From sequence record PZ452583.1: a stretch of DNA of 64,000 nucleotides; one strand, 5' to 3'. Positions 799-48,183 of the stretch are shown here, one piece after another. Below the pieces are notes generated by a model. That model made no database searches, was not told where the DNA came from, and saw only the letters and a list, made by a program, of their open reading frames with translations. The DNA is from a phage. Within the stretch, counting starts at the first letter, position 1; each line of letters starts with the position of its first letter. The position numbers and the translations under genes are program-made.

Positions 799-828
799 AT
801 AGTACCATGGAAGAACAGTCTTGTAAAC
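799..828 (-). promoter_or_regulatory. T4 early-promoter-like element (GTTTAC -35-like, 18-nt spacer, TACTAT -10-like)
   Basis: Minus strand reads GTTTACAAGACTGTTCTTCCATGGTACTAT followed by GGAGG and the ATG at 770; one copy of a reiterated element. Confidence 0.45.
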
Positions 829-910
829 AGTTTTGTGAAAAAATTTTTAATGAATTCAAAGGGTCCAGAATCATCTATTTTTCCTAAGTATAGATTTATA
901 TTACTTGTAT

Positions 911-932
911 GAAAAAGGGACCCGGAGGTCCC
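911..932 (-). terminator. Intrinsic terminator-like hairpin downstream of gene 43
   Basis: Minus-strand GGGACCUCCGGGUCCC hairpin followed by UUUUU, immediately after the gene 43 stop (946). Confidence 0.5.
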
Positions 933-945
933 TAGATTTATTCTA

Positions 946-3642
946 TCAGCCAAACAGGAAGTCTAACGAAGCTTTTTCTTCATAGTCCATACCAGCCGAT
1001 TCACACATGCCTGCAAGCGGTTTAACAAACGATTTTTGGAACAAAGTTGAGTAGTCAATCCAAGACAGTACGTCAGAACGAATTTCTTTTGGAAGTTCTG
1101 TGCCCGACGGCCAAGCAATGCACTTGTCACCAAATGGATTTCCTTCACGCAATGGAAGAACCATTACTTTATTTCCATCCAAAATTGGAGCTACACCTAA
1201 ACCGCTAACAGCTCGACGATAAGTTAGCACCCCACGAATATGGAACGGGCATTTAAATCCTGGCCAACCTTTATCATCATATTTCGCTATATCGTTCGCA
1301 GTTTTTACTTCAGCAATAACTTTATAGTCAAGTTGACGATATTCTTTCTCGAAGTTCTTGTAATATTCTTGGACAGACTCTTCACCTTCCTGAAGAATAC
1401 GACGAATACTTTCTTCGAGAGCTTCTTGGACCGCTTTAGGCGTTGAACTCTGCTGAGTTTCCATACCCATGATTTTTAGATGCGGTTCAGCAAATCGCTT
1501 ATCTTCCATATCATAAACGTTCAGAGCATAACGCTTTTTCGCTTTCCAAAATCCACCGACGCCCTTTGAACCAAGTGGAGGGCAAGAAATAGCTTCACGG
1601 TCCATATGCATCAGATGCTCGCGGTTATTCATATAATCACATAACTCACGATATGCAACATCAATCATAGGTTCCATCTTTTTCTTACCGAACTGATTCA
1701 TAAATTCAACCAAATCGTTCTGCTCTTTGAATCGGTCAAGACCAACTTTTTCAATAACTTTATCTACACAAACATATACCGAATCAGTATCACCTGCTGC
1801 AATGAAATCTTCGCCATTAGTTCCGCATACTTTATTCAGATATTCATTAATTTTACGAGCAATCCACTGAATACCAACTTGGCCGAAAATTGTGATAGCA
1901 GTAGCATTTCGCAAATCATAGTAGCGGAAATGAATATTACCAAGAGCACCGTAAAGGCTGTTAATAAGAATTTTACGGTTCAGCTGATTTGTATTAGCAA
2001 GTGTAGCTGCTTTTTCACATTCTTCAATCAAACTATTGAGAACAGATTCAGTATAATTCGATAGTTCATTTAAGAAATCATCACTGAACTTAACATATCG
2101 TTCAACTTCAGGTTTAGTTGAACAAGACCCTGCGCCTTTCATAATAATCTTTTTAATAGCTTCGGCATTCATTTCTTCAGCGAACATTTTCTTTTTCCAG
2201 TCTTTACGCTGGAAAAATACTTTAGCGATTTCCTTTGGAATGATACCTTCTTGATGCTTATCGTACATCCATCCATTCGGAGAACAAGAATATTCATCAC
2301 TCGGTTTAGGAGCTGTTCCTGTGATATATTCATGAATTGGATGAACTTTAAACTGACCACGAATAGTCTCAGGACTAATGTTAACCTGACGAATAATGCT
2401 CGGATACAGAGACGTCAAGTCAAAACTCATAATATATCGACGAGCAATTGGTTTAGGTTCAAACACAAATGCACCCGGAAAACTCTGTTTAACATGCGAA
2501 CCTTGTTGAGGAATAACCTTATGTTCACCTTTCAATGAGTTAAAAATAATGGCATCCCAGGTTTTAATAGGACTCATTACACCAGAAAAAGGCATTTTAG
2601 CGTAATAAGACATACTTAAAACTAGATCGATAAACCCGCGAATTTTATCAATTGCTTGAACTGATTCTACGTCAATGATGTTATAACTAATGTATCGTTG
2701 ATGATTAGTCTCACGAAGTTTATTAATAGGACCGTCGTATGGTAATTTACCTTTTTTGGTTTCATGCTGAGCAACTGATTCCAAAGAGAATGACGGCAAA
2801 TTAGTAAATGCGAATTTCTTATACAAATCTAAATAATCAAGAATAGATACGCCATCAATAGAATAAATTTCTTTGCTACCGTACATATTTTGGATAAGTT
2901 TAGATTTTACTCGACCGATTGGAGAGAAGCGTTTCATACTACGTTCACCGAGAACCATTTTAACGCGATTCATGATATACGGAACGTCAAATCCCTCAAT
3001 ATTCCAACCAGTAAAAATAGCAGGTCGTTTCTGTTCCCAAAGATTAATATATTCCATGAGCATATCACGCTCATTATCGAATGGCATATAAATTACTCGG
3101 TCAAGAATTTCTTGAGGAACTTCATCACCACCTTCACAGTCAAGCTTAGCAGCTAACTTTGCATCCCATTTTGATACTGAACCGTACATTGAATTCAAAA
3201 GGTCGAAAACATAAAAACGATCATCAATTGAATCGTAATGAGTGATAGCATCAATTTCATATTCAGCTTTCATTGGGTCAGGAAATTTATCACCAGTAAC
3301 CTCAATGTCACAGTTAGCTACACGAACAAATTTTCGGTCATAAACAATTTCTGAACCGTATGTATCACTGATATAAGCGAGTTTAAAATCGTTCATACCG
3401 AGAGCTTCGAGACCGATGTCTTCCATTCGTTTCATCCAATCTCGAGCATCTTTCATTGATGGAAATTTTTGAGGAGCGCAGTTTTTACCATAGATGTCTT
3501 TGTACTTTGACTCTTCCTTACAATGCCTAAACATAGTTGGAAGATATTCTACTTCACGAGTACGTTCATTTCCATTTTCATCAATATAACGCTCAACAAT
3601 GTTATTTCCGACTGTTTCAATAGAGATATAAAATTCTTTCAT
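946..3642 (-). CDS. 43: DNA polymerase gp43 (family B, with 3'-5' exonuclease)
   Basis: ORF track 898 aa; N-terminus MKEFYISIETVGNNIVERYIDENG as in T4 gp43; exonuclease DIE motif and polymerase GDTDS motif present; T4 size (898 aa). Confidence 0.97.
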   Translation of the reverse strand: MKEFYISIETVGNNIVERYIDENGNERTREVEYLPTMFRHCKEESKYKDIYGKNCAPQKFPSMKDARDWMKRMEDIGLEALGMNDFKLAYISDTYGSEIVYDRKFVRVANCDIEVTGDKFPDPMKAEYEIDAITHYDSIDDRFYVFDLLNSMYGSVSKWDAKLAAKLDCEGGDEVPQEILDRVIYMPFDNERDMLMEYINLWEQKRPAIFTGWNIEGFDVPYIMNRVKMVLGERSMKRFSPIGRVKSKLIQNMYGSKEIYSIDGVSILDYLDLYKKFAFTNLPSFSLESVAQHETKKGKLPYDGPINKLRETNHQRYISYNIIDVESVQAIDKIRGFIDLVLSMSYYAKMPFSGVMSPIKTWDAIIFNSLKGEHKVIPQQGSHVKQSFPGAFVFEPKPIARRYIMSFDLTSLYPSIIRQVNISPETIRGQFKVHPIHEYITGTAPKPSDEYSCSPNGWMYDKHQEGIIPKEIAKVFFQRKDWKKKMFAEEMNAEAIKKIIMKGAGSCSTKPEVERYVKFSDDFLNELSNYTESVLNSLIEECEKAATLANTNQLNRKILINSLYGALGNIHFRYYDLRNATAITIFGQVGIQWIARKINEYLNKVCGTNGEDFIAAGDTDSVYVCVDKVIEKVGLDRFKEQNDLVEFMNQFGKKKMEPMIDVAYRELCDYMNNREHLMHMDREAISCPPLGSKGVGGFWKAKKRYALNVYDMEDKRFAEPHLKIMGMETQQSSTPKAVQEALEESIRRILQEGEESVQEYYKNFEKEYRQLDYKVIAEVKTANDIAKYDDKGWPGFKCPFHIRGVLTYRRAVSGLGVAPILDGNKVMVLPLREGNPFGDKCIAWPSGTELPKEIRSDVLSWIDYSTLFQKSFVKPLAGMCESAGMDYEEKASLDFLFG

Positions 3643-3680
3643 AGATATTCCTTAGTTTATAGCCCGAGTTATTAGGCTCT
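3643..3680 (-). promoter_or_regulatory. Gene 43 translational operator (RNA hairpin plus Shine-Dalgarno, autoregulation site)
   Basis: Minus strand reads AGAGCCUAAUAACUCGGGCUAUAAACUAAGGAAUAUCUAUG directly upstream of the gene 43 AUG, matching the T4 gp43 operator as recalled. Confidence 0.6.
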
Positions 3681-3722
3681 TGATATATTATACTCCAAAT
3701 AAGGGGCCGAAGCCCCTTTGCT

Positions 3723-3959
3723 TTAAATTTCTATTGTACGACGCGATATAACGGACTTGCCATCTGTATTTGTGGTTTTGATAATCGCATGAAATGCGCG
3801 TTGGCGTGGGTAAACTAATCGTTGGAATTCTTTTTGGAATTCTATTTGTTTATCTTCCGGGAGGTCAAAAACCAGTTGGGTAGAAGACAGACCATATGTT
3901 TGTTTTAGATTTTCGAATATTAGAAAAGCTTCGGTAAACTGAATCTCTGATTGTGTCAT
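3723..3959 (-). CDS. Hypothetical small protein between regA and gene 43
   Basis: ORF track 3723..4010 overlaps regA; supported start is ATG 3959..3957 (MTQSEIQF...) with AAGGT Shine-Dalgarno; followed by a C(UUCG)G hairpin at 3702..3715. Confidence 0.4.
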   Translation of the reverse strand: MTQSEIQFTEAFLIFENLKQTYGLSSTQLVFDLPEDKQIEFQKEFQRLVYPRQRAFHAIIKTTNTDGKSVISRRTIEI

Positions 3960-3969
3960 ATAATTTACC

Positions 3970-4338
3970 TTAATTACCAATCGTATATTTAGGAACGAGT
4001 TTCCATTCATGTTTTTGTTTAAAAGAAATAACTCGGAAGTTATTAGTTAAATCTTTCATAAAAGTTCTTTGACCAGGAACGATTTCAATCAATCCCCAAT
4101 CTTCTAACAACCATGCAATCGAATCACGACGAACTTCATCTTCTTCTGTCATTTCAACTTGACGACCATCCATACGAAGCATTTCTTTAAAATGAACGAT
4201 ATAGTATAGTCCTTTTTTCTGAAGAATATGACAGGACTGATACAGAACTTTATCTTTATTATTAGCAATTCCCATACGAGTCAAAGTTTCTTTTACTTTC
4301 AGAAAATCTTCAGGTTTTTTAAGAGTAATTTCAATCAT
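3970..4338 (-). CDS. regA: RegA translational repressor
   Basis: ORF track 122 aa (T4 RegA size), N-terminus MIEITLKKPEDFLKVKETL; located between genes 62 and 43 as in T4. Confidence 0.9.
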   Translation of the reverse strand: MIEITLKKPEDFLKVKETLTRMGIANNKDKVLYQSCHILQKKGLYYIVHFKEMLRMDGRQVEMTEEDEVRRDSIAWLLEDWGLIEIVPGQRTFMKDLTNNFRVISFKQKHEWKLVPKYTIGN

Positions 4339-7300: not shown

Positions 7301-8983
7301 TTAAACCATTACAGTAAATCGACCAACTTTCTTCATTTGAAGATGCTGACCGTATGCTTGTGGGTCATGGTCTCTATGCGAAATAACAAAAACATTAGTA
7401 TTTTTTAAACTATCTAAAATAGTTGAAATAGCTTTTACACCTTCAACGTCGGTCGCTGAATCAAAAACTTCATCAAGAATTAGTGTGTTTATTTTAACAC
7501 CTGAAACTTTTTCAGCAATATCACGCCAAGTAAATAAAAGAGCAATATCAATTCGCGCTTTTTCACCTTGACTGAATGAAGCATAACTAAAATCTTCACG
7601 ACCACGGGATTTAATTGTCTCATTAAATTCTTCATCTAATGTAAACACATAATCCGCTTCCATTATTTTAAGATAATGGTTAATCTGCTTATTAAATAAT
7701 GGAATGTACTTTTTAATAATAGCACCTTTAATACCAGAATCTTTGAGCATATCAGTCAAAATTCCTCGGTGGTATTTTTCCATTACTAAATTAGTTTTTG
7801 TCTTAACAATTTTATCAAGTTCTTCTTGAAGCAGTGCTATTTCATCAGCATGGTCAATAAACTCAGAAGATGCTTTTTCTATAGCTGCTTTAACTTTTTT
7901 AGCTTTATCTACTGTCGTGATTAGAGATTGCTTTTTATTGCGAATATCATTTGCCAACGACTGCTGGGTTTTAATATTATCTCGGTATTCATCAACAAGA
8001 ACTTTTAAATTATCACGGTGTGTTGAAAGCTGTTCAAACGAATGCGTGCATTCAGAAACTTTATCTTTAATTTTAGAAACAACTTTATCACCGGAACTCA
8101 ATTGTGACAAACAGGTTGGACATAATCCACCTTCGTGATACATATTAATGACTTTATTATACGAGTCAATTTTTGATTTAATTAAAACTGCTTCTTGACC
8201 GATTTTATTAAATGCATCAGTCGGGTCTTCGTCTAAAACAATATTAACTAATCTTTCATTAGCTTCTTCTATTTCCGATTTTAGCGTTCTAGCTTCTTTT
8301 GCCAAATCATCATACATATTTTGCAGACGAGTAAGATTGTCACCCGTTAATTTTTTCTGGCGTTCAACGTTATCATTATATATTTTAATTTGTTGGATAA
8401 TACTATCTTTTTTAACATCAAGCACTTGGTTTTGTGAATTTAATTCACGTATTAGTGCTTTATTAAGCTTATCCATTTCAGCTAATGTTCCTACCTCAAG
8501 CAGGTCTTCCACAAGCTTTCTTCGTGCAGGGGTCGACAAACCCATGAAAGGGGTATACCCTGCTGTACCAAGGACAACAATCTGCTTGAAACTGGCATAT
8601 GACATTCCGATAAGCTGTTCAAATTCTGCTTGGAAATCTTTACTGCTGGCAGATTCATTAAGACGTGTACCGTTAACGGTGATTTCGAAAACGTTTGGTT
8701 TTTGTCCTCTTTTGATATAGTACTTTTTCTCATCATATTCCATCCACAGTTCAACTAAAAGTTCTTTCTTATTTGTGCTGTTTATTAATTGACCTTTCTT
8801 TACATCACGAAATGGTTTGCCAAAAAGCCCAAATGTGATGGCTTCTAACATAGTAGACTTACCACCGCCATTTCGGCCAGTAATAAGAGTTTTTTGAACC
8901 TTATCTAATTGAATGTCAATAGGATTTCCACCTACTGACATTATATTTTGATACCTAACTCGGTTTAATTTAAAATTCTTCAC
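7301..8983 (-). CDS. 46: Recombination endonuclease subunit gp46 (Rad50/SbcC-like ATPase)
   Basis: ORF track 560 aa (T4 size); Walker A GRNGGGKST; apparent GTG start overlapping the upstream stop. Confidence 0.9.
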   Translation of the reverse strand: MKNFKLNRVRYQNIMSVGGNPIDIQLDKVQKTLITGRNGGGKSTMLEAITFGLFGKPFRDVKKGQLINSTNKKELLVELWMEYDEKKYYIKRGQKPNVFEITVNGTRLNESASSKDFQAEFEQLIGMSYASFKQIVVLGTAGYTPFMGLSTPARRKLVEDLLEVGTLAEMDKLNKALIRELNSQNQVLDVKKDSIIQQIKIYNDNVERQKKLTGDNLTRLQNMYDDLAKEARTLKSEIEEANERLVNIVLDEDPTDAFNKIGQEAVLIKSKIDSYNKVINMYHEGGLCPTCLSQLSSGDKVVSKIKDKVSECTHSFEQLSTHRDNLKVLVDEYRDNIKTQQSLANDIRNKKQSLITTVDKAKKVKAAIEKASSEFIDHADEIALLQEELDKIVKTKTNLVMEKYHRGILTDMLKDSGIKGAIIKKYIPLFNKQINHYLKIMEADYVFTLDEEFNETIKSRGREDFSYASFSQGEKARIDIALLFTWRDIAEKVSGVKINTLILDEVFDSATDVEGVKAISTILDSLKNTNVFVISHRDHDPQAYGQHLQMKKVGRFTVMV

Positions 8984-9243
8984 AAAAGATTCCTTTTAAT
9001 GTATCTTTTAGACCATTCTATCATATCATCATAATCTAAAAAGTATTCATCAAATTCAGCCATGCAAACAACACCTTGTGCTGCTTTTGATGTGATATAA
9101 ATTATTCCAACATATCTAGAATCTTCTTCGGTATAATCAATATTTGCTATGAATTCATCATTAATGTCAAATGTCGAAAACTTCACAGTATGCATCCTTA
9201 ATACAAGATACAGCCATATCTTGTAATGATTTAGGTGTGTCAT
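8980..9243 (-). CDS. Hypothetical protein (T4 46.1 position)
   Basis: ORF track 87 aa; overlaps neighbour, start uncertain. Confidence 0.45.
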   Translation of the reverse strand: MTHLNHYKIWLYLVLRMHTVKFSTFDINDEFIANIDYTEEDSRYVGIIYITSKAAQGVVCMAEFDEYFLDYDDMIEWSKRYIKRNLL

Positions 9244-9430
9244 TATCTAAAATGTTGAAGTTAAAAGATACAGCCCAGTCAGTGCAGACCGTAACCTTTT
9301 TAATACAATTATCTTCAACCTCTAACGGTTCAAACCAATATTCAATAATTTCTTTATGACCAATATCATCTTTTACTTCGCATTCAAAATGCTGACTCAT
9401 CATAACATTTTTAAATTCATCAAAAGTCAT
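9167..9430 (-). CDS. Hypothetical protein (T4 46.2 position)
   Basis: ORF track 87 aa, co-directional between 47 and 46. Confidence 0.5.
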   Translation of the reverse strand: MTFDEFKNVMMSQHFECEVKDDIGHKEIIEYWFEPLEVEDNCIKKVTVCTDWAVSFNFNILDNDTPKSLQDMAVSCIKDAYCEVFDI

Positions 9431-10446
9431 TGTGTTGCCTCTACATATAGCTGGTTTGCATATTGAATAAGTGCTTCACGGTCAGAATCAGTGATGTCTG
9501 GAATTGCATTAATGTATTCTTCCATCAACGTCTGAAGAGATTGAACTTCAACTTCTTCACTGTCATCTGACTCGACAGAGTTATCAATCTTTGACACAAC
9601 TCGTAATGAATGCACAACTTTTTCTAGTTCAGATTCGAACTTCGTCAGATTTTTGTCTACTTCAGTTACTATAACACGTACTGATAGATTTGTAAAATCT
9701 TTATAGTCAATTTTTCCTTTAAATGGATAATGAATTCTACGATGCCAGGTAGTATTGTTTGGAATAAATTCCATTCGTTCTGTTTCTGTATCAAACATCC
9801 AGAACCCACGAGGGTCATTCTCGTCACCTGCAGTTAGTGTCCATGGTGTCCCAATATATCTGACGTTAGCAGCCTCAGAGATAGTATGGAAGTGACCAGA
9901 CCACACTTCTTTATAAGTCTTAAGGAAATCAGGTTCAAGACCATGAGATTTCATTCCTTTATAAAAATAAAATCCGTTCAGTTCCCAGTGACCAACGCAA
10001 AAAGAAGCAGATGAAGTTTTGATGTGTTCAAGAATTTCACCAGTATTTTCTTCACACATCCAAGGAATTAAATCAATTAAACATCCGTCAAAATCTACTG
10101 TAGTAGGCTTATCATATACTTTAACATTAGGATATTTAGCCAAAAGCTCAGTAGAGGCATTTGGATGCATTACATTTTTGTAGTGGAGATCGTGATTTCC
10201 TACAATAGTATGTAATGTGATTCCAGCATCATCAAGCATTTGAACTATTTCGCGAGCGAACTCCATAGTTTTATGCGTGATTGCTTTTCGCACATCAAAA
10301 ATATCGCCGTATTGAATCCATGTAGTAATTCCATTTTTCTTAGAATATTCTATTGCTTGTTTAATTCCATCAATTTGAATACCGCGAATCCACTCATCAT
10401 CAGCTTTAACGCCTAAATGCCAATCACCTAAATTTAAAATTTTCAT
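9427..10446 (-). CDS. 47: Recombination nuclease subunit gp47 (Mre11-like phosphoesterase)
   Basis: ORF track 339 aa (T4 size); phosphoesterase motifs GDWHLG and GNHD. Confidence 0.92.
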   Translation of the reverse strand: MKILNLGDWHLGVKADDEWIRGIQIDGIKQAIEYSKKNGITTWIQYGDIFDVRKAITHKTMEFAREIVQMLDDAGITLHTIVGNHDLHYKNVMHPNASTELLAKYPNVKVYDKPTTVDFDGCLIDLIPWMCEENTGEILEHIKTSSASFCVGHWELNGFYFYKGMKSHGLEPDFLKTYKEVWSGHFHTISEAANVRYIGTPWTLTAGDENDPRGFWMFDTETERMEFIPNNTTWHRRIHYPFKGKIDYKDFTNLSVRVIVTEVDKNLTKFESELEKVVHSLRVVSKIDNSVESDDSEEVEVQSLQTLMEEYINAIPDITDSDREALIQYANQLYVEATQ

Positions 10447-13397: not shown

Positions 13398-13667
13398 TTA
13401 TCTAAGTAAACAGTATGCTTGGAACACTTTCTCCATCATCTTTTTAAATTCATGAATATCTATATAATGACTAGTTAAATCAGCATGATATAAAAAGTCT
13501 AAAAACTTTTCATGTGTGCTAACATATTCACTTTCATTTAATTCAGAAACATGACTTTCCCAATATCCAACACCAGTCTTATTTGGGAAAAATGAAATTT
13601 TCATGTATTGGTCAACATAGAAAATGCCATAATTTTCAATAGTAATAGAAATATTAATAAATTTCAT
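13398..13667 (-). CDS. Hypothetical protein
   Basis: ORF track 89 aa. Confidence 0.5.
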   Translation of the reverse strand: MKFINISITIENYGIFYVDQYMKISFFPNKTGVGYWESHVSELNESEYVSTHEKFLDFLYHADLTSHYIDIHEFKKMMEKVFQAYCLLR

Positions 13668-14599: not shown

Positions 14600-14893
14600 T
14601 CAGCTGTAACGATAACATTCGTTTGATTTGCGCTTAGCAACTCGTTGAGATGTATTATAATCAAAATCATCGTCAATGTAAACTGATTTTTTCAACTTTC
14701 TTACTTCACCACGCAGTTGACGATTCAATTCATTCTTAACCTCTGAATCAACACCTCGCATACGTCGCCATTTATCTGAACGAAAAATGTTTTCAACCAT
14801 ATCTTTATGACTTACCCCATCAGGAGCTTTACGCTTTCCGAAATAGTCATAATCACGAACTTTCAAGTCTTTACGACGATACGTTTTACCCAT
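14600..14893 (-). CDS. Hypothetical basic protein
   Basis: Track ORF 14600..14938; supported start ATG 14893..14891 (MGKTYRRKDL) after AAGGAAA; Lys/Arg-rich. Confidence 0.5.
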   Translation of the reverse strand: MGKTYRRKDLKVRDYDYFGKRKAPDGVSHKDMVENIFRSDKWRRMRGVDSEVKNELNRQLRGEVRKLKKSVYIDDDFDYNTSQRVAKRKSNECYRYS

Positions 14894-15068
14894 GGAGTTT
14901 AATTTCCTTAGCAACTGAACTAAATACAGCACGATCACAAATCATGTGTTTATGTAACTTAAGTATAAGATAATAAACATCATAACCATTTACGTAAGTA
15001 ACACGAACAACATTACCATTAATAAAATAATATTGTCCCTTTTTAATTTCTTTATCAACCACAACCAT
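14886..15068 (-). CDS. Hypothetical protein
   Basis: ORF track 60 aa; ATG 15068 after GAGGA; early-promoter-like element upstream at about 15090..15128. Confidence 0.5.
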   Translation of the reverse strand: MVVVDKEIKKGQYYFINGNVVRVTYVNGYDVYYLILKLHKHMICDRAVFSSVAKEIKLHG

Positions 15069-15226
15069 ATCAAATCCTCAAAGGCAATTCATATGTTAAT
15101 AATACCACGGTTTGAACTTGTTGTAAACAACTTTGTGAAAATTATTTTAGGGAATGATAAGAAGGGAACGATAGCTTAGAATGGTAATATACAGAATGTA
15201 AGAAAGAAAGGCCCAGAAGGCCCGTC

Positions 15227-15550
15227 TTAGTCTTCTATGATATCTCTATCATATCCAAGTGAAATGAGAGTTTCTTTGAAGTGTTTAATGTTCTTTTGTC
15301 TAGAATCATTAATGAAAATGACTGGATAACGAATGTTAAGAGATGTGAATCCAGCGCGTTTAGCAAGAGATACAATCAGCGGACGATCATACTCAATCTT
15401 ACCATTATTTGTAAGAACTTTATAGAAAGTAAAAGGAGCATTGAGCTCCTTTAGAAGTTTTGTAACTGATTGACATCCAGGACAACGACCAACTTCATCT
15501 GGAATTCCGTAGACTTCAATCTTATTCTTTAAGTTCGAGTTTTGTTCCAC
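15227..15550 (-). CDS. nrdH: Glutaredoxin-like protein (CPGC active site), NrdH-like
   Basis: ORF track 15227..15679; CxxC motif GRCPGCQ; start uncertain (candidate GTG at 15550 just after the upstream stop); T4 nrdH position. Confidence 0.5.
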   Translation of the reverse strand: MEQNSNLKNKIEVYGIPDEVGRCPGCQSVTKLLKELNAPFTFYKVLTNNGKIEYDRPLIVSLAKRAGFTSLNIRYPVIFINDSRQKNIKHFKETLISLGYDRDIIED

Positions 15551-15833
15551 GAGAAATAATTCCTTGGTAAGCCCAATAAGGAGGATTAACAGAATCCTCA
15601 CCAGAGTTTTCTTCAGGAAAATAAACCTGGATAACGAAGCCGGATTCATCAAAGGTGAAATAAGTAGTAGGCAGTTCACCTAACAAATCGGCACGAGCGT
15701 TGATTTCTTCGAGGTCTTGTTCACGTCCAGCCCAGAAGCTTGGGTTCAGACTACATTCATAGAAATAATAGTCATTACCGAACATATCAAAACCATTCCA
15801 ACTCTCTACTACATACCGCTCAAAACTAATCAT
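15522..15833 (-). CDS. Hypothetical protein
   Basis: ORF track 103 aa. Confidence 0.5.
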   Translation of the reverse strand: MISFERYVVESWNGFDMFGNDYYFYECSLNPSFWAGREQDLEEINARADLLGELPTTYFTFDESGFVIQVYFPEENSGEDSVNPPYWAYQGIISRGTKLELKE

Positions 15834-23166: not shown

Positions 23167-23223
23167 ATTAATCTCCTCAGTAGAAAGTAAGAACATTATA
23201 CCACATCCTTGTGGCAAAGTAAA

Positions 23224-24228
23224 CTAGTTCAGTGCATTTAGTGCATTGTTCAATTTAGAACGTTGCTTCGTGAGATTTTTTACTTTTTCTTGAGCTTTTT
23301 CTAGCATCTTTTCAGCTTCTAACACTTCATTAGTTGCTTTAACGAGTTCATCATCTACTGCCTTAAGGGACTTCTCAATCGCATCCGCGTGCCATTTTTC
23401 AACAGGTTTAAGACTCGGATTTTCAACAGGAAGAAAATTCACTTTATTGAATTTCCATGCATCTTTATTACCTGAACTATACATCCAAAATTTAGGATCG
23501 TTTGATGAGTAATTAGTTTGGGGTTCAGGTTTTTTCTCTTGTGTAACTTCGTCCTTTCTCAAAAAATCATATTTAAATGAAACGATCATATCAAGTTCAT
23601 ATGTTGTCGTATCTAATTTAAATCGTTCGAAATGCTGCGAAATCTTAGATTGAACAGCATCAACAACATCCATATACTTAAATGCTTCTGTCAACTGTGA
23701 TTTAAGGCATTCACAAATTGAAAGAGAATTTTTTGTATTAGGTTTAAAGCTAATTCGTGCAGTTCTATTATTTTCTTTTAACGGTCTTACTTCCATCTGA
23801 AGAGTATAACCATCAAATTTCAGATTCTTTAAGTTAATATCAGAACCTTTTAATCGACTAGCCGTAGACAAAATTTGCTTTAATTGTTTACGGAATAGAG
23901 CAATAAATCTCCATTCAAGACGATAATGATTTGGATTAAAAAATCCTGTTGATAAATCAACCTTACTCTGACCAACGCCTTGAACAAATAGAGGATTTTT
24001 ATAATCAATAGTTTTACAGAAATCGGTGAGCTGCTCACGAGCAGTCATTTGAGTAATATACCCTGCTTCATTAAAATGACGTAACCATTCACTGCTATTC
24101 ATATACTTAAAGTGAATATCACGATTAACTTTATCAGGGTCTAAATTATTTTGGCACAAAAATGTCATAACATTACGGGTATAGCTGGCATTACGAACCA
24201 TATCTTCAATTTGAGAACGAGTTTTCAT
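23224..24228 (-). CDS. Hypothetical protein with C-terminal coiled coil
   Basis: ORF track 334 aa. Confidence 0.6.
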   Translation of the reverse strand: MKTRSQIEDMVRNASYTRNVMTFLCQNNLDPDKVNRDIHFKYMNSSEWLRHFNEAGYITQMTAREQLTDFCKTIDYKNPLFVQGVGQSKVDLSTGFFNPNHYRLEWRFIALFRKQLKQILSTASRLKGSDINLKNLKFDGYTLQMEVRPLKENNRTARISFKPNTKNSLSICECLKSQLTEAFKYMDVVDAVQSKISQHFERFKLDTTTYELDMIVSFKYDFLRKDEVTQEKKPEPQTNYSSNDPKFWMYSSGNKDAWKFNKVNFLPVENPSLKPVEKWHADAIEKSLKAVDDELVKATNEVLEAEKMLEKAQEKVKNLTKQRSKLNNALNALN

Positions 24229-25594: not shown

Positions 25595-26122
25595 TTATGC
25601 GAGTACCGTCTTTAACCGTTCTTCAAACTTCCGAAGAGTATTCTGGCGTTCAGCTCTTTGCTTTTTGTAAGTTTCAATACGCTCTGAAATGAGAGTGTAT
25701 CGTTCATTTACTGATTCTTTCATAAAATCAGGAATTTCACGAGAAGCTTTAATCTCGTCAAATTTATCAATAACAGCTTGCTCTTCAGCAATTAAGTTAT
25801 CATACATCAAAATATCTTTCTTGATGAACTCAATATCTTCTTGAGTTACACGAGATAATTTAGATGCTTTATCCTTTTTGTACTGTTCGTTAGTATCACG
25901 AGACCAGTGTAATGTACGATTTTTATTCGTATTCTTGTAAATTTCTACAATACCAATCTCATCGATAATAACGATCCAATTCCAACGGGATTTGTAAATT
26001 TGTCCTCCATCAACCGTGATTTCACCACCGATTGAGACATCATTAAAGAACTTGCTTTGAGCTTCAGATTTAAATTTACCATCATTGTAGTTTACCAAGT
26101 TGAAAATATCTTTAGCATTCAT
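25595..26122 (-). CDS. Hypothetical protein
   Basis: Track ORF 25595..26182 reads through a promoter; supported start ATG 26122..26120 (MNAKDIF) after GGAGG. Confidence 0.55.
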   Translation of the reverse strand: MNAKDIFNLVNYNDGKFKSEAQSKFFNDVSIGGEITVDGGQIYKSRWNWIVIIDEIGIVEIYKNTNKNRTLHWSRDTNEQYKKDKASKLSRVTQEDIEFIKKDILMYDNLIAEEQAVIDKFDEIKASREIPDFMKESVNERYTLISERIETYKKQRAERQNTLRKFEERLKTVLA

Positions 26123-26150
26123 TTTCTGTTCCTCCGTAGTTGATAGTTGT

Positions 26151-26180
26151 ATAATACCACAGAGGAACAGTCTTGTAAAC
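26151..26180 (-). promoter_or_regulatory. T4 early-promoter-like element
   Basis: Minus strand GTTTACAAGACTGTTCCTCTGTGGTATTAT then GGAGG and ATG at 26122. Confidence 0.45.
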
Positions 26181-26182
26181 AA

Positions 26183-27589: not shown

Positions 27590-27619
27590 ATAGTACCATA
27601 AAGCTTTATGCTTGTAAAC
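27590..27619 (-). promoter_or_regulatory. T4 early-promoter-like element
   Basis: Minus strand GTTTAC, 18-nt spacer, TACTAT, upstream of the ATPase gene start. Confidence 0.45.
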
Positions 27620-27640
27620 AACTTTGTGAAAAATTTTTGA

Positions 27641-27667
27641 AATAAAAAAGGGAGCCCGAAGGCTCCC
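27641..27667 (-). terminator. Intrinsic terminator (C(UUCG)G-type hairpin plus U-tract)
   Basis: Minus strand GGGAGCCUUCGGGCUCCC followed by UUUUUUAUUU, just downstream of the 27670..28683 gene. Confidence 0.6.
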
Positions 27668-27669
27668 TA

Positions 27670-28683: not shown

Positions 28684-29141
28684 TCAGCCTTATATTCAAT
28701 AACAGGACATACTTTAGCTTTACGAGCTTTTAAAAATTCAACGATAACCGATTTCTTGGGTTGAATAGGAGGTAAACCTTTATACGCCCTATCAATATTT
28801 TCTACGTGTAAAGCATAATCCTTTTTCCATTTATAATCTTTATATTTTTCACGCAAATGTGCAGGAATAACAAATGAACCGATAATAAGTAAAACAACCA
28901 AAAGCGCAAGTATAAATGCTGATGGAAGCAAAGTCCATAAACTACCAAAAATAAGCCAACGTTGTAGGCTTTCTGCACAAATAATTGTTAGCCCTACGAG
29001 TATAGCACATCCAAAAATAGAAACGAAAAATGTAGGAATGGCAATAGACCAAAAATATGCGCATAGTGTCTTAGGTCGTTGCCATTCATCGTTAAACAAT
29101 TTGAATAATTTATAGTGCCAAGAGTTTTCATTAATAATCAT
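28680..29141 (-). CDS. Hypothetical membrane protein
   Basis: ORF track 153 aa; multiple hydrophobic segments. Confidence 0.55.
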   Translation of the reverse strand: MIINENSWHYKLFKLFNDEWQRPKTLCAYFWSIAIPTFFVSIFGCAILVGLTIICAESLQRWLIFGSLWTLLPSAFILALLVVLLIIGSFVIPAHLREKYKDYKWKKDYALHVENIDRAYKGLPPIQPKKSVIVEFLKARKAKVCPVIEYKAE

Positions 29142-29143
29142 AA

Positions 29144-29665
29144 TTATCCTCTCATTGAAGGCGTAACAGTTGTTAAATACTTAATCATAGCTTCAGCTTC
29201 TGATTTTGATAATGAAATTTCTCCATTGTTTTGACGAATAGAAATAAAATCCGGATGACGGTCACCACCAGCTTTTAAAACACACATATAAGTATCAACT
29301 TCATCTTCAATATTTGAAATGATTGAAGCAGTTCCACATGAATGCGGTTTTTGATAAATCAATGCAGCTTTTCTTCCGCCATTTGACTGTTCATAAACTT
29401 TTAATACATCAAACAAATCACTTCTTTTATCAATAGCTAAAATGTTATTTTCATCTTCAATGTTAAATCCTTCGGATACTTCATAAAGTGTCACCCATAA
29501 ATCGCCAATATCAATAACAGCGTTCACTTTTCCATGACTTTCAAGAGCATGACAAATTTTCTTGATTTCGTCATAACTCATTTTAATAATATCATCTCCT
29601 TGAATAAGAAAGATGTCATTTTTAAATTCAACACGAATTAAACCACTTCCACTTGAAATAAACAT
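29144..29665 (-). CDS. Hypothetical protein (paralog-like to 29672..30226)
   Basis: ORF track 173 aa; C-terminus EAEAMIKYLTTVTPSM resembles the neighbour's EAIALKTYLDSVIPTM. Confidence 0.55.
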   Translation of the reverse strand: MFISSGSGLIRVEFKNDIFLIQGDDIIKMSYDEIKKICHALESHGKVNAVIDIGDLWVTLYEVSEGFNIEDENNILAIDKRSDLFDVLKVYEQSNGGRKAALIYQKPHSCGTASIISNIEDEVDTYMCVLKAGGDRHPDFISIRQNNGEISLSKSEAEAMIKYLTTVTPSMRG

Positions 29666-29671
29666 ATTTCC

Positions 29672-30226
29672 TCACTTTGAAATCATAGTTGGAATGACAG
29701 AATCAAGATAAGTCTTTAGCGCAATAGCTTCGTCTTTGGTAAATGTGACAATATGTGCTCGAGAATCATCATTTTGGCGAACAAGTACGACATCGCCATC
29801 TTCATAAGAAGTCTTGACATCCAAAGTCGTAGTATAATTTGCAGCTACTGGATTAATAATGTTAGCACCGCGATCTTTAGCCCATTGAAGTTTAGCCTTT
29901 TCAGGTGTTTCGACTGTTTCAGATTCCAAGAATTCTTTCACCTTGGCAACGAATGTTGCCCAATTGTTAATAGAAAGACACATAAATTCAGTTTCAATAT
30001 TACCGCCGTAAAGGCCACGATAAAAACGAACTTGGAGGTCGTCTGTAATATTAGTTACACCGGTAACTCCTGAGGGAGCATAAGATAAAATCGCAGCCAG
30101 TTCCATAGGAAGAATAGTAATACTATCGTCTTCCTGCGTCAGAACGTATACATTACCGCGTTTTTCGATAACTAGGTCACCGAACAAATCAGTTGTTTCA
30201 ATTACAGCTTTCATATTATTTACCAA
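29672..30226 (-). CDS. Hypothetical protein (paralog-like to 29144..29665)
   Basis: ORF track 184 aa. Confidence 0.55.
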   Translation of the reverse strand: MVNNMKAVIETTDLFGDLVIEKRGNVYVLTQEDDSITILPMELAAILSYAPSGVTGVTNITDDLQVRFYRGLYGGNIETEFMCLSINNWATFVAKVKEFLESETVETPEKAKLQWAKDRGANIINPVAANYTTTLDVKTSYEDGDVVLVRQNDDSRAHIVTFTKDEAIALKTYLDSVIPTMISK

Positions 30227-30401
30227 TTAAAGTTTCAATATAAGAATCGAGATTTACTTTAGCTTCTTCCATAAGAGTTTTGTATTTAATCTTGTTGGCA
30301 TGTCCGGAAAAAGCTGATTCATCAATAATTGTTGATGTATGAACAGCTTTACTATACGTCTCAATTAATTCTCTTAATTTAAAAGCCTGCTCACTTGTCA
30401 T
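30216..30401 (-). CDS. Hypothetical protein
   Basis: ORF track 61 aa; ATG overlaps the stop of an upstream small ORF. Confidence 0.45.
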   Translation of the reverse strand: MTSEQAFKLRELIETYSKAVHTSTIIDESAFSGHANKIKYKTLMEEAKVNLDSYIETLIGK

Positions 30402-30923: not shown

Positions 30924-30925
30924 AA

Positions 30926-31317: not shown

Positions 31318-31384
31318 GATGTTCTCCTCTTTATCCGATGGTTGTATAGTATCACAGCTCAAATGGAAAGTAAACCGGTAAAAT

Positions 31385-31408
31385 GAAAAAAGTCTCCCGA
31401 AGGAGACT
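31385..31408 (-). terminator. Intrinsic terminator (C(UUCG)G-type hairpin plus U-tract)
   Basis: Minus strand AGUCUCCUUCGGGAGACU followed by UUUUUUCAUUUU, downstream of the 31413..31799 gene. Confidence 0.55.
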
Positions 31409-31412
31409 AACG

Positions 31413-32089: not shown

Positions 32090-32101
32090 AAAGGCCTCCT
32101 A

Positions 32102-32314
32102 TCATTTTTGTCCTGTATTTACTTTATGCCGGTGCACGGCCTTAACTTTATCAAGGTATTTTTCAAAATTTCGCAATCTAGTATAGTCTGCCGGAGATTG
32201 GTTGAGCGATACTTCTCGACGCAAAGCTGAAATGATATTTCCAACTTCCCTACGAATTTCATCTAATTGAAGCACAGTAAGATTGCGAAGTTGCTTTTCA
32301 GTTAATTGTAGCAT
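32102..32314 (-). CDS. Hypothetical protein (T4 rI.1 position)
   Basis: ORF track 70 aa. Confidence 0.5.
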
Positions 32315-32356
32315 ATATACCCCTTTAGTTAGATAAACCTATTTATAACTTTTGCA

Positions 32357-32938: not shown

Positions 32939-32947
32939 ATCACCTTC

Positions 32948-33133
32948 TTAAAGCGTATTCACATAAGCTATTAATTCATTTTCTTTCTTATCAAACCGAT
33001 CAGCAAATTCTTCCTGCTGTTCGGGAGATAGCGGGCCGTATTCATCATAAAAGGTGTTTGCTTCTGCATGCTCATCTAGAAGTTCATGGATAAGCTCAAA
33101 CAATTTATCTTTTTGTTCTTTGCTTAGGCTCAC
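32948..33133 (-). CDS. Hypothetical protein
   Basis: ORF track 61 aa, acidic. Confidence 0.5.
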   Translation of the reverse strand: MSLSKEQKDKLFELIHELLDEHAEANTFYDEYGPLSPEQQEEFADRFDKKENELIAYVNTL

Positions 33134-33302
33134 AGTATGTCAATCCCCAAAAGTTTTAAAATGACTCGTTTCTGATTCATAACCGCTACGATTGAATGAC
33201 CGTTGGGGTCTTTTTGACCCGATCCAATTATAAATCCTTTTTGTGCAGAAAGTTCAATCAAAACATCAAGTTCACGTAATAATTGATATTTTAAATCATC
33301 AT

Positions 33303-33509
33303 TCATTTTGGTTTACCTTCTTTAACGAAATCAGGATAAGGATAAAATCCCGAATAAAATCCTTCACCTTTATGATTGATGCATCCTTTATTAGAACAAT
33401 AGCACCAATAATCGAAATCACAAGCCATTTCATCATTACATAAAGCAAAAACAACAGGCCACTTACACTTTTCACAGTGGGCATTTTTAAGAATACTAGT
33501 TTGGCTCAT
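33303..33509 (-). CDS. Hypothetical Cys-rich protein
   Basis: Track ORF 33303..33530; supported start ATG 33509..33507 in an ATGA overlap with the upstream stop; multiple Cys pairs (CEKC, CYC). Confidence 0.45.
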   Translation of the reverse strand: MSQTSILKNAHCEKCKWPVVFALCNDEMACDFDYWCYCSNKGCINHKGEGFYSGFYPYPDFVKEGKPK

Positions 33510-33718
33510 AACCATGTAACCTTTAAGCAATATTCTTCTACATGTTGTTTACGACCTTTCTTATCAATAAAGGTATATTCAACGAATGTTCCAATGTAGT
33601 CTTTATCTACATCATGTGGACTATTAATTGGACATTTAGTACGGCAAATGCGTTCCCATTGACGAATAATTACTGCTTTGTTTTTAGGATCAAACGGATG
33701 CGGGTAATGTACTTTCAT
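33506..33718 (-). CDS. Hypothetical protein
   Basis: ORF track 70 aa. Confidence 0.45.
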   Translation of the reverse strand: MKVHYPHPFDPKNKAVIIRQWERICRTKCPINSPHDVDKDYIGTFVEYTFIDKKGRKQHVEEYCLKVTWL

Positions 33719-34169
33719 AATCCACCACTATTAAATCAATATCAGGAGTAAACATGTCGATTAATTTAGAAACCTTATCCCAATCGCCGCCAGCAATACC
33801 ACAACCTATGCGTGGAATGTAAATTACCGGTTTAAACAAAAGGGTTTCTGCCTGTAGATTTAATTCTATCATGCAGTTTACTAAAGCACCATAATCAAGA
33901 TTAGGACCTGGTTCGTATTGCGTATACAAGTTATAACATATGCCAAAACCATTAGGTTTATGTTTAAAAACAATAGACATATCGCCTAATTTATCACGAG
34001 AACCGTACTCAGTAGTGGTTTTATCTATTTCTAAAATTTTGGGATAGGCTCTTGCTAATTGACCCGCTACACCTGAACCCATAGTATGAAAACAATTGCA
34101 CCCGTGCGCAATAATATTACCTTGAAGAAATAGGGCGACAATATCGCCCTTGATATATTTTACAATCAT
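33690..34169 (-). CDS. Macrodomain-like protein (predicted ADP-ribose binding/hydrolase)
   Basis: ORF track 159 aa; N-terminal KGDIVAL...GNIIAHGCNCFHTMGSGVAGQLA and C-terminal IPRIGCGIAGGDW resemble macrodomain signature regions. Confidence 0.55.
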   Translation of the reverse strand: MIVKYIKGDIVALFLQGNIIAHGCNCFHTMGSGVAGQLARAYPKILEIDKTTTEYGSRDKLGDMSIVFKHKPNGFGICYNLYTQYEPGPNLDYGALVNCMIELNLQAETLLFKPVIYIPRIGCGIAGGDWDKVSKLIDMFTPDIDLIVVDYESTLPASV

Positions 34170-35541: not shown

Positions 35542-35571
35542 ATTATACCACAGTCAAGAGGAAAAGTAAAC
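35542..35571 (-). promoter_or_regulatory. T4 early-promoter-like element upstream of regB
   Basis: Minus strand GTTTAC, 18-nt spacer, TATAAT, then GAGGAG and the regB ATG. Confidence 0.5.
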
Positions 35572-38627: not shown

Positions 38628-38657
38628 ATACTATCACAATTCTAGGAGAAAGTAAAC
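38628..38657 (-). promoter_or_regulatory. T4 early-promoter-like element upstream of denV
   Basis: Minus strand GTTTAC, 18-nt spacer, TAGTAT, then GGAGGG and the denV ATG. Confidence 0.45.
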
Positions 38658-42150: not shown

Positions 42151-42483
42151 TTATTCTTCGTCCAATTCATCAATAAATTTATCGATACTACTATTAATAG
42201 ACTCATCAATGATTAACAAAGCATCATCATCCATAATATTAATATTTTCTAAAGCATCAATATAAGCTTGATTGACTGTAGACCATGCCCTTTGAAAATA
42301 TGGGGCTTCATCATCAGGACTGAACCAACGCACACCTTCAAAGATACGTTTGGCATAATCTAACACCCATTGTACAGGCATGTTTTGAGAGCGTTCATTA
42401 AACTCTTCAAAGTCCTTAGATTCAAAAAGCTCTTCAGGATAATAATTTCTATTACAAAAAGCTTTACTAAAGTTGCGTTTCAT
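42151..42483 (-). CDS. Hypothetical protein
   Basis: ORF track 110 aa. Confidence 0.5.
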   Translation of the reverse strand: MKRNFSKAFCNRNYYPEELFESKDFEEFNERSQNMPVQWVLDYAKRIFEGVRWFSPDDEAPYFQRAWSTVNQAYIDALENINIMDDDALLIIDESINSSIDKFIDELDEE

Positions 42484-42539
42484 AATGTTCTCCTCAAAGT
42501 TATAGGCTCATAATATCTCAATCATGAGCCTGTGTAAAC

Positions 42540-42803
42540 TTATTTCATATTATTGAAATATTCTTCAGCAATTTCATCATTATCATGATAAACTTTAGAA
42601 GACAGTTTAACATAACTTTCAGCAGTGAACATGTTAATCACAACCTTTACAGTATACCACTGACCGTCTTCATTACCCATTACTGCGTAAGTTTCAAACA
42701 TCGGATGATCAGGACCGATAACTTTAATATCATTCACTGTACGACCAAAATCTTCTGAAACACATTTCATAAAGAAGTTGAACAGTTCACCATAATTATC
42801 CAT
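42540..42803 (-). CDS. Hypothetical protein
   Basis: Track ORF 42540..42938 reads through a promoter; supported start ATG 42803..42801 (MDNYGELFNF) after GGAGA. Confidence 0.5.
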   Translation of the reverse strand: MDNYGELFNFFMKCVSEDFGRTVNDIKVIGPDHPMFETYAVMGNEDGQWYTVKVVINMFTAESYVKLSSKVYHDNDEIAEEYFNNMK

Positions 42804-42846: not shown

Positions 42847-42876
42847 ATAGTACCATGGAAGGACAAGGATGTAAAC
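42847..42876 (-). promoter_or_regulatory. T4 early-promoter-like element
   Basis: Minus strand GTTTAC, 18-nt spacer, TACTAT. Confidence 0.45.
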
Positions 42877-43010: not shown

Positions 43011-43038
43011 AAAAAGCCCCAACCTTTCGGCTAGGGCT
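43011..43038 (-). terminator. Intrinsic terminator (long stem, GAAA tetraloop, U5), copy A
   Basis: Minus strand AGCCCUAGCCGAAAGGUUGGGGCUUUUU immediately downstream of the 43046..43519 gene. Confidence 0.6.
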
Positions 43039-43045
43039 AAGAATG

Positions 43046-43519
43046 TTATTTGATTTGTTTAGCAGACCAAATGCGGTCTTTAATAATTTTTTGGATGTCT
43101 TCAACATACTCAAGAGAGTGAGCATGTGGGTTATCTTTGAAACTATAAGCACGAGCTAGCTTTTGGCCTTCAGTTTTGATTACTAAAAGCTCTTTAAGGA
43201 TAGCTTCATATTTGGAGATAATTCCTTTAACAATATTTTTCTCTTGTGCGACTTTAGGATCTGCTTTAGGAGCAGGTTTACCTGAAGCCTTTGCAAAAGC
43301 AGCGCCAGTAGCAACTAAACTTTTCCAGGCCATACTAACAGCATTCCCCGTAAATCCTTCTGCTTTCATGTCGCGAGCAAATTGGAATCGTGATTCATCA
43401 GAAGCATCTTTATAGGAATATTTACCCGCTGCAATGGCTGCTTTTGCGACAGCTTGAATTTCGGTGCTAGACGCTTCATTTAACACCGCTTCATTTAAAA
43501 ATTGAGCATATGATTTCAT
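43046..43519 (-). CDS. Internal-protein-like (capsid-targeting sequence) protein, late-promoter driven
   Basis: ORF track 157 aa; N-terminus MKSYAQFLNEA fits the CTS pattern; TATAAATA late-promoter octamer on the minus strand at plus 43556..43563. Confidence 0.6.
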   Translation of the reverse strand: MKSYAQFLNEAVLNEASSTEIQAVAKAAIAAGKYSYKDASDESRFQFARDMKAEGFTGNAVSMAWKSLVATGAAFAKASGKPAPKADPKVAQEKNIVKGIISKYEAILKELLVIKTEGQKLARAYSFKDNPHAHSLEYVEDIQKIIKDRIWSAKQIK

Positions 43520-43565: not shown

Positions 43566-43593
43566 AAAAAGCCCCAACCTTTCGGCTGGGGCT
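43566..43593 (-). terminator. Intrinsic terminator (long stem, GAAA tetraloop, U5), copy B
   Basis: Minus strand AGCCCCAGCCGAAAGGUUGGGGCUUUUU; near-identical to copy A at 43011..43038. Confidence 0.6.
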
Positions 43594-45220: not shown

Positions 45221-45226
45221 GTTATA

Positions 45227-47608: not shown

Positions 47609-47794
47609 TTATTCACCTTTAGAAATTTTATCCATAACGATAGCGATTAAACCAATTAAAAATGCTACTACAAGCGAAAACACATTTTCTGCTGTAGTTA
47701 ATAATCCGCATATAAATCCAACAAACATTGAAAAACTAAAAGCGGAAGCAGAAATTGCAATAGCAACATTTCGAATTAATTCACAACGTTTCAT
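47609..47794 (-). CDS. Hypothetical small membrane protein
   Basis: Track ORF 47609..47854 reads through a promoter; supported start ATG 47794..47792 (MKRCELIRN) after GAGGAG; hydrophobic helix FSMFVGFICGLL...VVAFLIGLIAIV. Confidence 0.5.
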   Translation of the reverse strand: MKRCELIRNVAIAISASAFSFSMFVGFICGLLTTAENVFSLVVAFLIGLIAIVMDKISKGE

Positions 47795-47822
47795 TTTATT
47801 CTCCTCAGTAGTTGATAGGGTA

Positions 47823-47852
47823 ATAGTATCACTACTAAAACCCCGTGTAAAC
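47823..47852 (-). promoter_or_regulatory. T4 early-promoter-like element
   Basis: Minus strand GTTTAC, 18-nt spacer, TACTAT. Confidence 0.45.
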
Positions 47853-47864
47853 AACTTTGTGAAA

Positions 47865-48122
47865 TTATTTTAAATCTTCTAATCGTTTCTTCATCTTAGA
47901 ACCATTTTTAGCGATTTCTCCTGCGTCAGAGCATAATGCTAAAAGTGCTTTAACTTTAGTTTGGTCTCCTTTAAAAGACGAAGGATCGACTGCAGCAGCA
48001 AGTTCTTTAATACGAGAGAAAAGACGCTCAGCTTCAGCTAAAGCCATTCCAAGCTTTACTTCCATACCATGAGAAGATTCAGTGATAATAGTTTCTGTAG
48101 CAAACTCTTTATAAGTTTTCAT
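47865..48122 (-). CDS. Internal-protein-like (capsid-targeting sequence) protein at the T4 ipI position
   Basis: ORF track 85 aa; N-terminus MKTYKEFATETIITE fits the CTS pattern; immediately downstream (in transcription) of 57B as ipI is in T4. Confidence 0.6.
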   Translation of the reverse strand: MKTYKEFATETIITESSHGMEVKLGMALAEAERLFSRIKELAAAVDPSSFKGDQTKVKALLALCSDAGEIAKNGSKMKKRLEDLK

Positions 48123-48153
48123 TTTATTTTTCCTAATTAATTTTGATGAGGTA

Positions 48154-48183
48154 ATAGTATCACTACCTCATCAGTGTGTAAAC
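48154..48183 (-). promoter_or_regulatory. T4 early-promoter-like element upstream of the ipI-position gene
   Basis: Minus strand GTTTAC, 18-nt spacer, TACTAT. Confidence 0.45.

Follow-up and report, generated by a model that had tools for sequence, protein, structure and literature searches.

The early promoters of bacteriophage T4 have been described by a consensus in which GTTTAC occupies positions -36 to -31 (PMC1524935), by the pattern TTTACW-N17-TAYWAT for T4 and PST (accessible text of PMC4122927), and by the architecture 'UP/-35/TGn/-10' (PMC2988021). The promoter of regB has been called a typical early promoter (review, PMC3014915). In T4-like phages, a composite form is known as the promoter-early stem-loop (PeSL) cassette (Arbiol et al. 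2010, PMC2839356; Comeau et al. 2014, PMC4122927). In the accessible text of these two papers, the stem-loops are proposed to act as attenuators or terminators (PMC2839356), and modular shuffling is reported for T4/PST, RB49/phi1, and KVP40/nt-1; the PeSL model also has mini-circles arising when flanking PeSLs recombine. Another arrangement, translational control by a promoter inside a hairpin, is established for T4 e, soc, 49, and I-TevI (review, PMC3014915). Here we analyse an element that recurs on the minus strand of a 64,000-nucleotide (nt) stretch of phage DNA (sequence record PZ452583.1; the whole stretch is called the window below) and compare it with each of these systems.

We conclude that the elements are T4-type early promoters, in most copies in the composite PeSL form, and give this reading, as the best explanation of the whole, a probability of roughly 0.92. 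The element is already known; its reiteration was correctly observed, highly non-random, and ordinary. A pattern search of the window found fourteen exact matches to GTTTAC-N18-TAYWAT, all on the minus strand, where 0.10 would be expected, and none of 100 dinucleotide shuffles reached this number. The corresponding patterns with N17 and N19 have no match in the window. We also built a weight matrix spanning -56 to +1 from the clear intergenic copies and iterated it to convergence. With a cut-off of 12 bits, it returned sixteen minus-strand sites, compared with 0.23 in Markov shuffles; fifteen scored 28-48 bits and the sixteenth 17.7 bits (Table 1). No site on the plus strand passed the cut-off. 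Of the sixteen sites, one is a middle promoter and fifteen are of early type, including a doubtful one inside a gene. At the fifteen intergenic sites, a GGAG/GAGG-type Shine-Dalgarno sequence (SD) and then an ATG opening a real open reading frame (ORF) follow 25-44 nt past the -10; at the intragenic site (14654..14683), the ATG lies 61 nt past the -10.

A preliminary description of this DNA had reported at least a dozen minus-strand copies, each followed by an SD, and had proposed a comparison with the published T4 consensus; the counts above and the sequence features below bear this out. Among the eight copies it located, seven are exact matches, and the remaining one (38628..38657) keeps the geometry but has TAGTAT at the -10. 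The range it gave, 799-48183, holds for the early sites, while the weight matrix reaches 49673, though with a middle promoter. Its account of the spacing does not stand. It had counted an 18-nt spacer, 1 nt over the sigma-70 optimum, but the -35 hexamer begins only after the G of GTTTAC, which is position -36, and this leaves a spacer of 17 nt; the anomaly is a register effect that arises because the count began one base too far upstream. An independent sigma-70 consensus scan reads the sites as TTTACA or TTTACT, 17 nt, and the -10. A copy with a shorter spacer that had been placed near 15090..15128 turns out to be a standard N18 copy at 15099..15128 (GTTTAC-AACAAGTTCAAACCGTGG-TATTAT), and the 3-nt shortfall probably came from taking TGGTAT as the -10.

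Both published consensus descriptions are matched. GTTTAC is followed by A or T in 15/15 early-type sites, giving the -35 hexamer TTTACW at -35 to -30. All sixteen sites have A at -40, within a region (-60 to -40) that is 62-90% A+T; TG is found at -15/-14 in thirteen of sixteen, and the predicted +1 is an A, within a CTATCAA-like start region, also in thirteen. The window is a Tequatrovirus segment: megablast searches with 26000-34000 and 26000-49800 found hundreds of Tequatrovirus genomes at 95-98% identity, with ~800 matching records, and T4 (AF158101), to which the window is ~97% identical, is colinear with it from T4 26.5 kb to ~89 kb at ~92-98% identity (blastn). Minus-strand genes up to ~51 kb correspond to the T4 early/middle region from imm.1 to gene 4, late baseplate genes follow on the plus strand beyond ~51 kb, and the GC skew agrees with this division. 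The same element is present in T4 at all sixteen orthologous positions (Table 1), and every site lies on the early-gene strand and is oriented toward the genes downstream. Orthology was shown by sequence because the public records annotate no promoters: the T4 GenBank record has no promoter features, and the Kha5h record annotates terminators but no promoters.

The likeness to T4 early promoters thus covers the -35 and -10 sequences, the 17-nt spacer, the TGn, the A-rich stretch at -40 to -44, the A at +1, the genomic position, and the orientation upstream of early genes. The window differs in that the -10 is more often TACTAT or TATTAT than TATAAT, though the published TAYWAT covers both, and in that some of its promoters drive different or additional small ORFs; nothing of substance separates the two otherwise. 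In operation, the elements would be used by unmodified host sigma-70 RNA polymerase within the first minutes of infection. Each is built from an A/T-rich UP region in which the A at -40 never varies, a G conserved at -36, TTTACW as the -35 hexamer, a spacer of 17 nt with TGn at its end, and TAYWAT as the -10; the predicted start is an A lying 7 nt further on (CTATCAA), and the leader of ~18-37 nt carries a GGAG-type SD.

Two alternatives can be set against this identification directly. One is that the matches arise by chance in AT-rich DNA, and a generic sigma-70 consensus scan seems to favor it: the 93 sites found are not significantly more than the 79.7 in shuffles. In DNA of this composition, such a scan alone is uninformative, and significance attaches only to the phage-specific pattern; the fourteen specific matches, with their single spacing and single strand, refute chance and leave it with next to no probability. 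The other alternative is that the sites are MotA/AsiA-dependent middle promoters rather than early ones, and for one site this is correct. The lowest-scoring weight-matrix site, 49644..49673, reads GTTTAATGCTTCA-N11-TATAAT and contains the TGCTT of a MotA box (full box (a/t)(a/t)(a/t)TGCTTtA, centred near -30 and taking the place of the -35 element). Its T4 ortholog at 75429 places the predicted +1 at T4 75393, which is the published start of P1, a MotA-dependent middle promoter of T4 (PMC2988021 Table 1). This site is a MotA-dependent middle promoter, and the match to P1 ties the rule of a +1 positioned 7 nt past the -10 to an experimentally mapped start. The other fifteen sites have GTTTAC and no TGCTT in the -35 region, and the published list of middle-promoter starts (PMC2988021 Table 1) includes none of the T4 starts predicted for them. 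A middle-promoter identity for the set is therefore very improbable.

The preliminary description overlooked a second layer, namely an inverted repeat around the -10 and a link to the shuffling of gene cassettes (PeSL). We folded the segment from -36 to +25 of each site and expressed the result as a z-score against dinucleotide shuffles. Nine of the sixteen sites have z <= -2.3, and a tenth (49644..49673) has z -1.97. In these hairpins, the spacer forms the 5' arm, the TGn and -10 lie in the loop, and the 3' arm begins directly past the -10. To control for composition, we paired each spacer both with its own downstream segment and with the segments of other promoters. Cognate duplexes average -11.75 kcal/mol compared with -7.3 kcal/mol for non-cognate pairs, a value that 0/20000 permutations reached; across 34 non-redundant promoters, including IMG/VR contigs of other genera, the corresponding values are -10.4 and -6.3. 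By these comparisons, the promoter spacer is under selection to pair with the sequence downstream. We also considered a common protein-binding palindrome around the -10 and rejected it, as the arm sequences differ between promoters and their complementarity is kept.

Core hairpins and upstream terminators tend not to occur together. Among the five intergenic promoters that have no core hairpin, four are preceded by a canonical terminator (those ending at 15128, 27619, 31375, and 42876; Table 1); nine of the ten core-hairpin promoters have no such terminator and usually adjoin the upstream stop codon. As in PeSLs, to the extent that the accessible text describes them, the window elements combine an early promoter with a stem-loop that either overlaps the -10 or lies between it and the -35, an SD and a start codon come next, and they are tied to the boundaries of insertions, deletions, and replacements in hyperplastic regions. 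Unlike the PeSLs described there, about one-third of the window promoters have no core stem-loop and a separate upstream terminator in its place. Since the 5' arm is encoded ahead of +1, transcripts from the promoter itself would lack it, and only read-through RNA begun further upstream can contain the full hairpin. In read-through RNA, the hairpin would most likely attenuate or terminate transcription, and where the 3' arm contains the SD (regB, nrdC.8, denV, and an 83-amino-acid (aa) ORF) it would also block translation of the downstream gene. The distribution of hairpins and terminators fits the attenuator or terminator role proposed for PeSLs, while the paired SD fits a gate of the e/soc/49/I-TevI type; both functions are predictions.

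Pairing between the spacer and the SD is best supported at regB. In twenty-four of thirty-two distinct upstream regions, with RegB identity down to 54%, a CTCC in the spacer pairs with the GGAG of the SD. The helix is kept with different sequences in three lineages, with compensatory changes at inward positions 2 (CG/GC/TA), 4 (AT/TA/GC), and 5 (GC/AT), and across the thirty-two regions the cognate pairing run is 4.6 bp compared with 1.65 bp for non-cognate pairs. This covariation supports selection on the helix. In one lineage (contigs L020-L022, RegB 77% identical), the spacer of the regB promoter is 1 nt shorter (TTTACT + 16 nt + TACTAT) and the SD-pairing hairpin is kept; the fixed-spacing weight matrix missed this promoter because of the shorter spacer.

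The arrangement resembles that of e, soc, 49, and I-TevI, where a hairpin sequesters the SD in long read-through transcripts, the promoter lies within the hairpin-encoding DNA, and transcripts from that promoter have no 5' arm and can be translated. Judged from sequence alone, the same combination of an SD inside the 3' arm and a 5' arm upstream of the internal start is found at 799..828, 26151..26180, 35542..35571, and 38628..38657. In the T4 genes, however, the internal promoter is a late gp55 promoter (TATAAATA) and the hairpin delays translation, whereas the promoters here are early sigma-70 promoters whose spacer is itself the 5' arm. It is possible, if somewhat doubtful, that the spacer plays a double role at regB (in several genera), nrdC.8, denV, and the 83-aa ORF, both separating the -35 from the -10 and encoding an anti-SD arm, such that the gene could be translated only from transcripts of its own early promoter. 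The accessible text of the PeSL papers does not mention spacer/SD pairing, and the conserved pairing seen here may go beyond what the accessible literature describes.

The promoters also coincide with places where related genomes part. Alignment of the window with T4, Kha5h, and five IMG/VR relatives gave 108 breakpoints, of which 22 lie within -66 to +40 of a promoter against 4.3 expected if they were uniform, although breakpoints are shared between related genomes and the count overstates their independence. Six different promoters are synteny boundaries. In Kha5h, the replacement of the e.7 cassette (42151..42540) coincides exactly with the interval between two GTTTAC boxes, and an additional ORF has entered at -1/-16 of the 38628..38657 promoter. 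Near-identical promoters (those ending at 48183 and 47852) flank the variable ipI gene. The 83-aa ORF (MKNIQTNFIQNLKVV...; 519..770, minus strand) lies between the imm.1 early promoter and imm.1, where T4 has 20 bp. It shares an identical leader (ACGGAGGAACACAAAATG) with the T4 nrdC.8 promoter, and its junction falls inside a segment, TACTATACAACTATCAACTAC, that is shared by the promoters ending at 828, 26180, 27619, and 42876; this suggests that the ORF was inserted by recombination within the shared promoter segment. Another segment, AAAATAATTTCACAAAGTTGTTTACA, is shared by those ending at 15128, 47852, and 48183. The similarity between some copies extends over 60-90 nt, which would allow homologous recombination to swap small early genes between phages. 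As far as sequence comparison can tell, the promoters clearly double as joints for such exchange, as in the PeSL model.

Two further observations concern cassettes of this kind. At the position of the nrdC.10 promoter, one IMG/VR contig (L006, 3300045988_128797) has three tandem early-promoter cassettes in ~750 bp (8664..9440), each with its own hairpin and small ORF, an example of cassette accretion at a PeSL. In the window, two copies of one strong terminator hairpin (AGCCCYAGCCGAAAGGTTGGGGCT followed by a T-run) at 43015..43038 and 43570..43593 (minus strand) flank a 157-aa ORF (43519..43046, minus strand) that T4 lacks at this position. Here, cassettes seem to have been shuffled between terminators, not promoters. 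The N-terminus of the ORF, MKSYAQFLNEA, presumably resembles the capsid-targeting sequence of T4 internal proteins.

Recognizing the promoters also bears on the gene calls. Eight mechanically called ORFs translate through an element, as the preliminary description had noticed. Under the rule of the first ATG/GTG/TTG, ORF 519..953 is read as 144 aa where the real start gives 83 aa, and ORF 25595..26182 as 195 aa rather than 175 aa. The others are 27621.. (344 vs 322 aa), 42938.. (132 vs 87), 47854.. (81 vs 61), 23217.., 31362.., and 49657..; three of the eight start at a TTG inside 'gTTGTTTAC'. The N-terminal extensions are artefacts of first-start calling, as had been proposed, and a real SD and ATG lie downstream. 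A first-start caller would pick a TTG or ATG upstream of the true transcription start and read an open frame across the promoter, yielding an artefactual peptide. That peptide had been given as a recurring HGTIQLSTTEE; the exact string occurs only once, at 809, and what recurs is a set of related strings in four other copies (HGTIQLSTTDT, YGTIQLSTDTD, CGIIQLSTTEE, and SDTITLSTTEE).

Could the longer ORFs instead be true genes that share a conserved N-terminal leader (...FTKLFT...GTIQLSTTEE)? Five copies have an open frame from promoter to ATG with similar peptides, and in those five the distances from the -10 to the ATG are all 1 mod 3. The extensions, however, begin at TTG or ATG codons that have no SD and precede the predicted transcription start, and the copies ending at 48183, 42539, 42150, 38657, 35571, and 15128 contain stops or sit outside ORFs. 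For these reasons, and because the downstream ATG is the annotated start in both T4 and Kha5h, we regard the extensions as non-coding. A strong SD and ATG are found downstream in every case, and what is conserved is the nucleotide sequence, non-coding promoter positions included, so a shared leader peptide is highly unlikely. Somewhat different is the idea that the elements are dispersed recombination or mobile repeats, like miniature inverted-repeat transposable elements, that merely resemble promoters and owe their conservation to spread. The long similarity within the TACTATACAACTATCAACTAC and AAAATAATTTCACAAAGTTGTTTACA groups and the enrichment of breakpoints at the elements speak for it. 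Yet the invariant positions are exactly the sigma-70 contacts while the spacer varies freely, orientation strictly follows the downstream genes with an SD and ATG always next, and there are no terminal inverted repeats or target duplications. The T4 orthologs moreover include the regB promoter, a typical early promoter (PMC3014915), and a role in recombination fits, and indeed belongs to, the PeSL promoter model. We consider mobile repeats a very unlikely explanation.

Several points, in addition to the shared breakpoints, weigh against the reading of the elements as early promoters in PeSL form. The start sites and the early timing are predicted for this phage from its sequence, and a search for 5'-end sequencing data from T4 returned nothing. 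The intragenic site at 14654..14683, with C at +1 and no TGn, may have little or no activity. Six of the sixteen sites do without a significant hairpin, so that this feature cannot be obligatory, and the core hairpins were rejected as canonical intrinsic terminators because they have no U-tract. The complementarity between terminators and core hairpins gives a one-sided Fisher value of ~0.017, calculated by hand and post hoc on a small sample of fifteen sites. Finally, eighty-six of the 108 breakpoints lie elsewhere, many of them at the presence or absence of homing-endonuclease genes.

Table 1. Promoter sites in the window (all minus strand), with weight-matrix scores, T4 counterparts, and local features. 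Early-type coordinates span the core from -36 to -7; hairpins refer to the fold around the -10.
Site	Type	Exact match	Bits	T4 ortholog position	Downstream gene	Core hairpin	Other features
799..828	early; GTTTACA-N17-TACTAT with TGG	yes	48.0	27080	imm.1 in T4; in the window the 83-aa ORF (770..519), then imm.1	z -3.45; SD in 3' arm	T4 synteny lost 18 nt past the -10
14654..14683	early-promoter-like; weakest case	yes	28.4	41261 (conserved)	55.4 ortholog	none (z -0.93)	inside 3' end of gene 55.5 ortholog (ORF 14938..14600); no TGn; C at +1
15099..15128	early	yes (N18)	44.6	41706	55.6 ortholog		terminator-like hairpin ~75 nt upstream
23195..23224	early	yes	32.0	50973	nrdC.4 ortholog	z -2.32	begins on final base of upstream stop codon
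26151..26180	early	yes	45.8	53943	nrdC.8 ortholog	14 bp; spacer paired with SD GGAGG; -23.2 kcal/mol; z -5.60	
27590..27619	early	yes	45.9		nrdC.10 ortholog	none (z +1.02)	intrinsic terminator 27668..27649 immediately upstream; breakpoints 40-54 nt into the element in L006 and L007
30534..30563	early		30.4	57990	mobD.2 ortholog (34 aa)	15 bp around the -10; z -4.84	
31346..31375	early	yes	37.4	58780	mobD.5 ortholog		intrinsic terminator 31408..31391 immediately upstream
35542..35571	early (regB promoter); GTTTACT-N17-TATAAT with TGG	yes	34.4	62797	regB	18 bp; spacer paired with regB SD; -22.4 kcal/mol; z -5.48	
38628..38657	early; -10 TAGTAT		35.6		denV in the window; ipIII in T4	z -3.83; SD included	breakpoints -1/-16 from G(-36) vs Kha5h and L007, +44/+54 vs T4 and L008
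42121..42150	early	yes	31.2		e.6 ortholog	around the -10; z -2.46	adjoins upstream TAA stop; cassette boundary vs Kha5h, L005, and L007
42510..42539	early	yes	28.2		e.7 ortholog	11 bp around the -10; z -4.42	adjoins upstream TAA stop; Kha5h alignment ends exactly at G of GTTTAC
42847..42876	early	yes	46.1	70696	e.8 ortholog	none (z +0.63)	terminator 43038..43015, 139 nt upstream
47823..47852	early	yes	45.4		trna.4 ortholog		downstream boundary of variable ipI cassette; T4 and Kha5h alignments resume 18 nt upstream of G
48154..48183	early	yes	41.9	73939	ipI-type gene (85 aa, variant of T4 ipI)	13 bp around the -10; z -4.68	
49644..49673	not early; ortholog of T4 middle promoter P1		17.7	75429	gene 1 (deoxynucleoside monophosphate kinase)	z -1.97	

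Other differences between the window and T4 concern small genes. From alignment gaps and the T4 annotation, the T4 homing-endonuclease genes mobB, mobC, and mobD and the nrdD intron with I-TevII are absent or replaced in the window; the gaps fall at window ~11816/11841, 16616/16636, 17912/17915, and 28684..30390. A 103-aa ORF (MISFERYVVESWNGF...; 15522..15833, minus strand) lies between the nrdH and 55.8 orthologs, inside a 325-bp insertion that is missing from T4 and Kha5h, and has no associated early promoter. Two more small ORFs are extra relative to T4 and are likewise without the early-promoter element: one of 95 aa (3723..4010, minus strand) between gene 43 and regA, and one of 89 aa (13398..13667, minus strand) between gene 55 and 55.1. 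The latter has a positional counterpart in Kha5h, an ORF annotated as similar to RB69ORF072c.

To the early promoters themselves, our analysis adds nothing new. Once the elements are recognized, at least eight over-long ORF calls in the window can be corrected, gene starts can be set, and the early transcription units of a T4-like phage are delimited. The use of the promoters as recombination joints and the selection on their spacers both bear on the engineering of T4-like phages, because an insert placed between PeSLs is tolerated and brings its own expression signals. If the spacer does have the double role considered above, a gene whose own early promoter is shut off after 2-3 min would fall silent in read-through polycistronic RNA, where the GGAG would also be shielded from RegB cleavage. 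For regB itself, synthesis of the nuclease would then be confined to a brief pulse.

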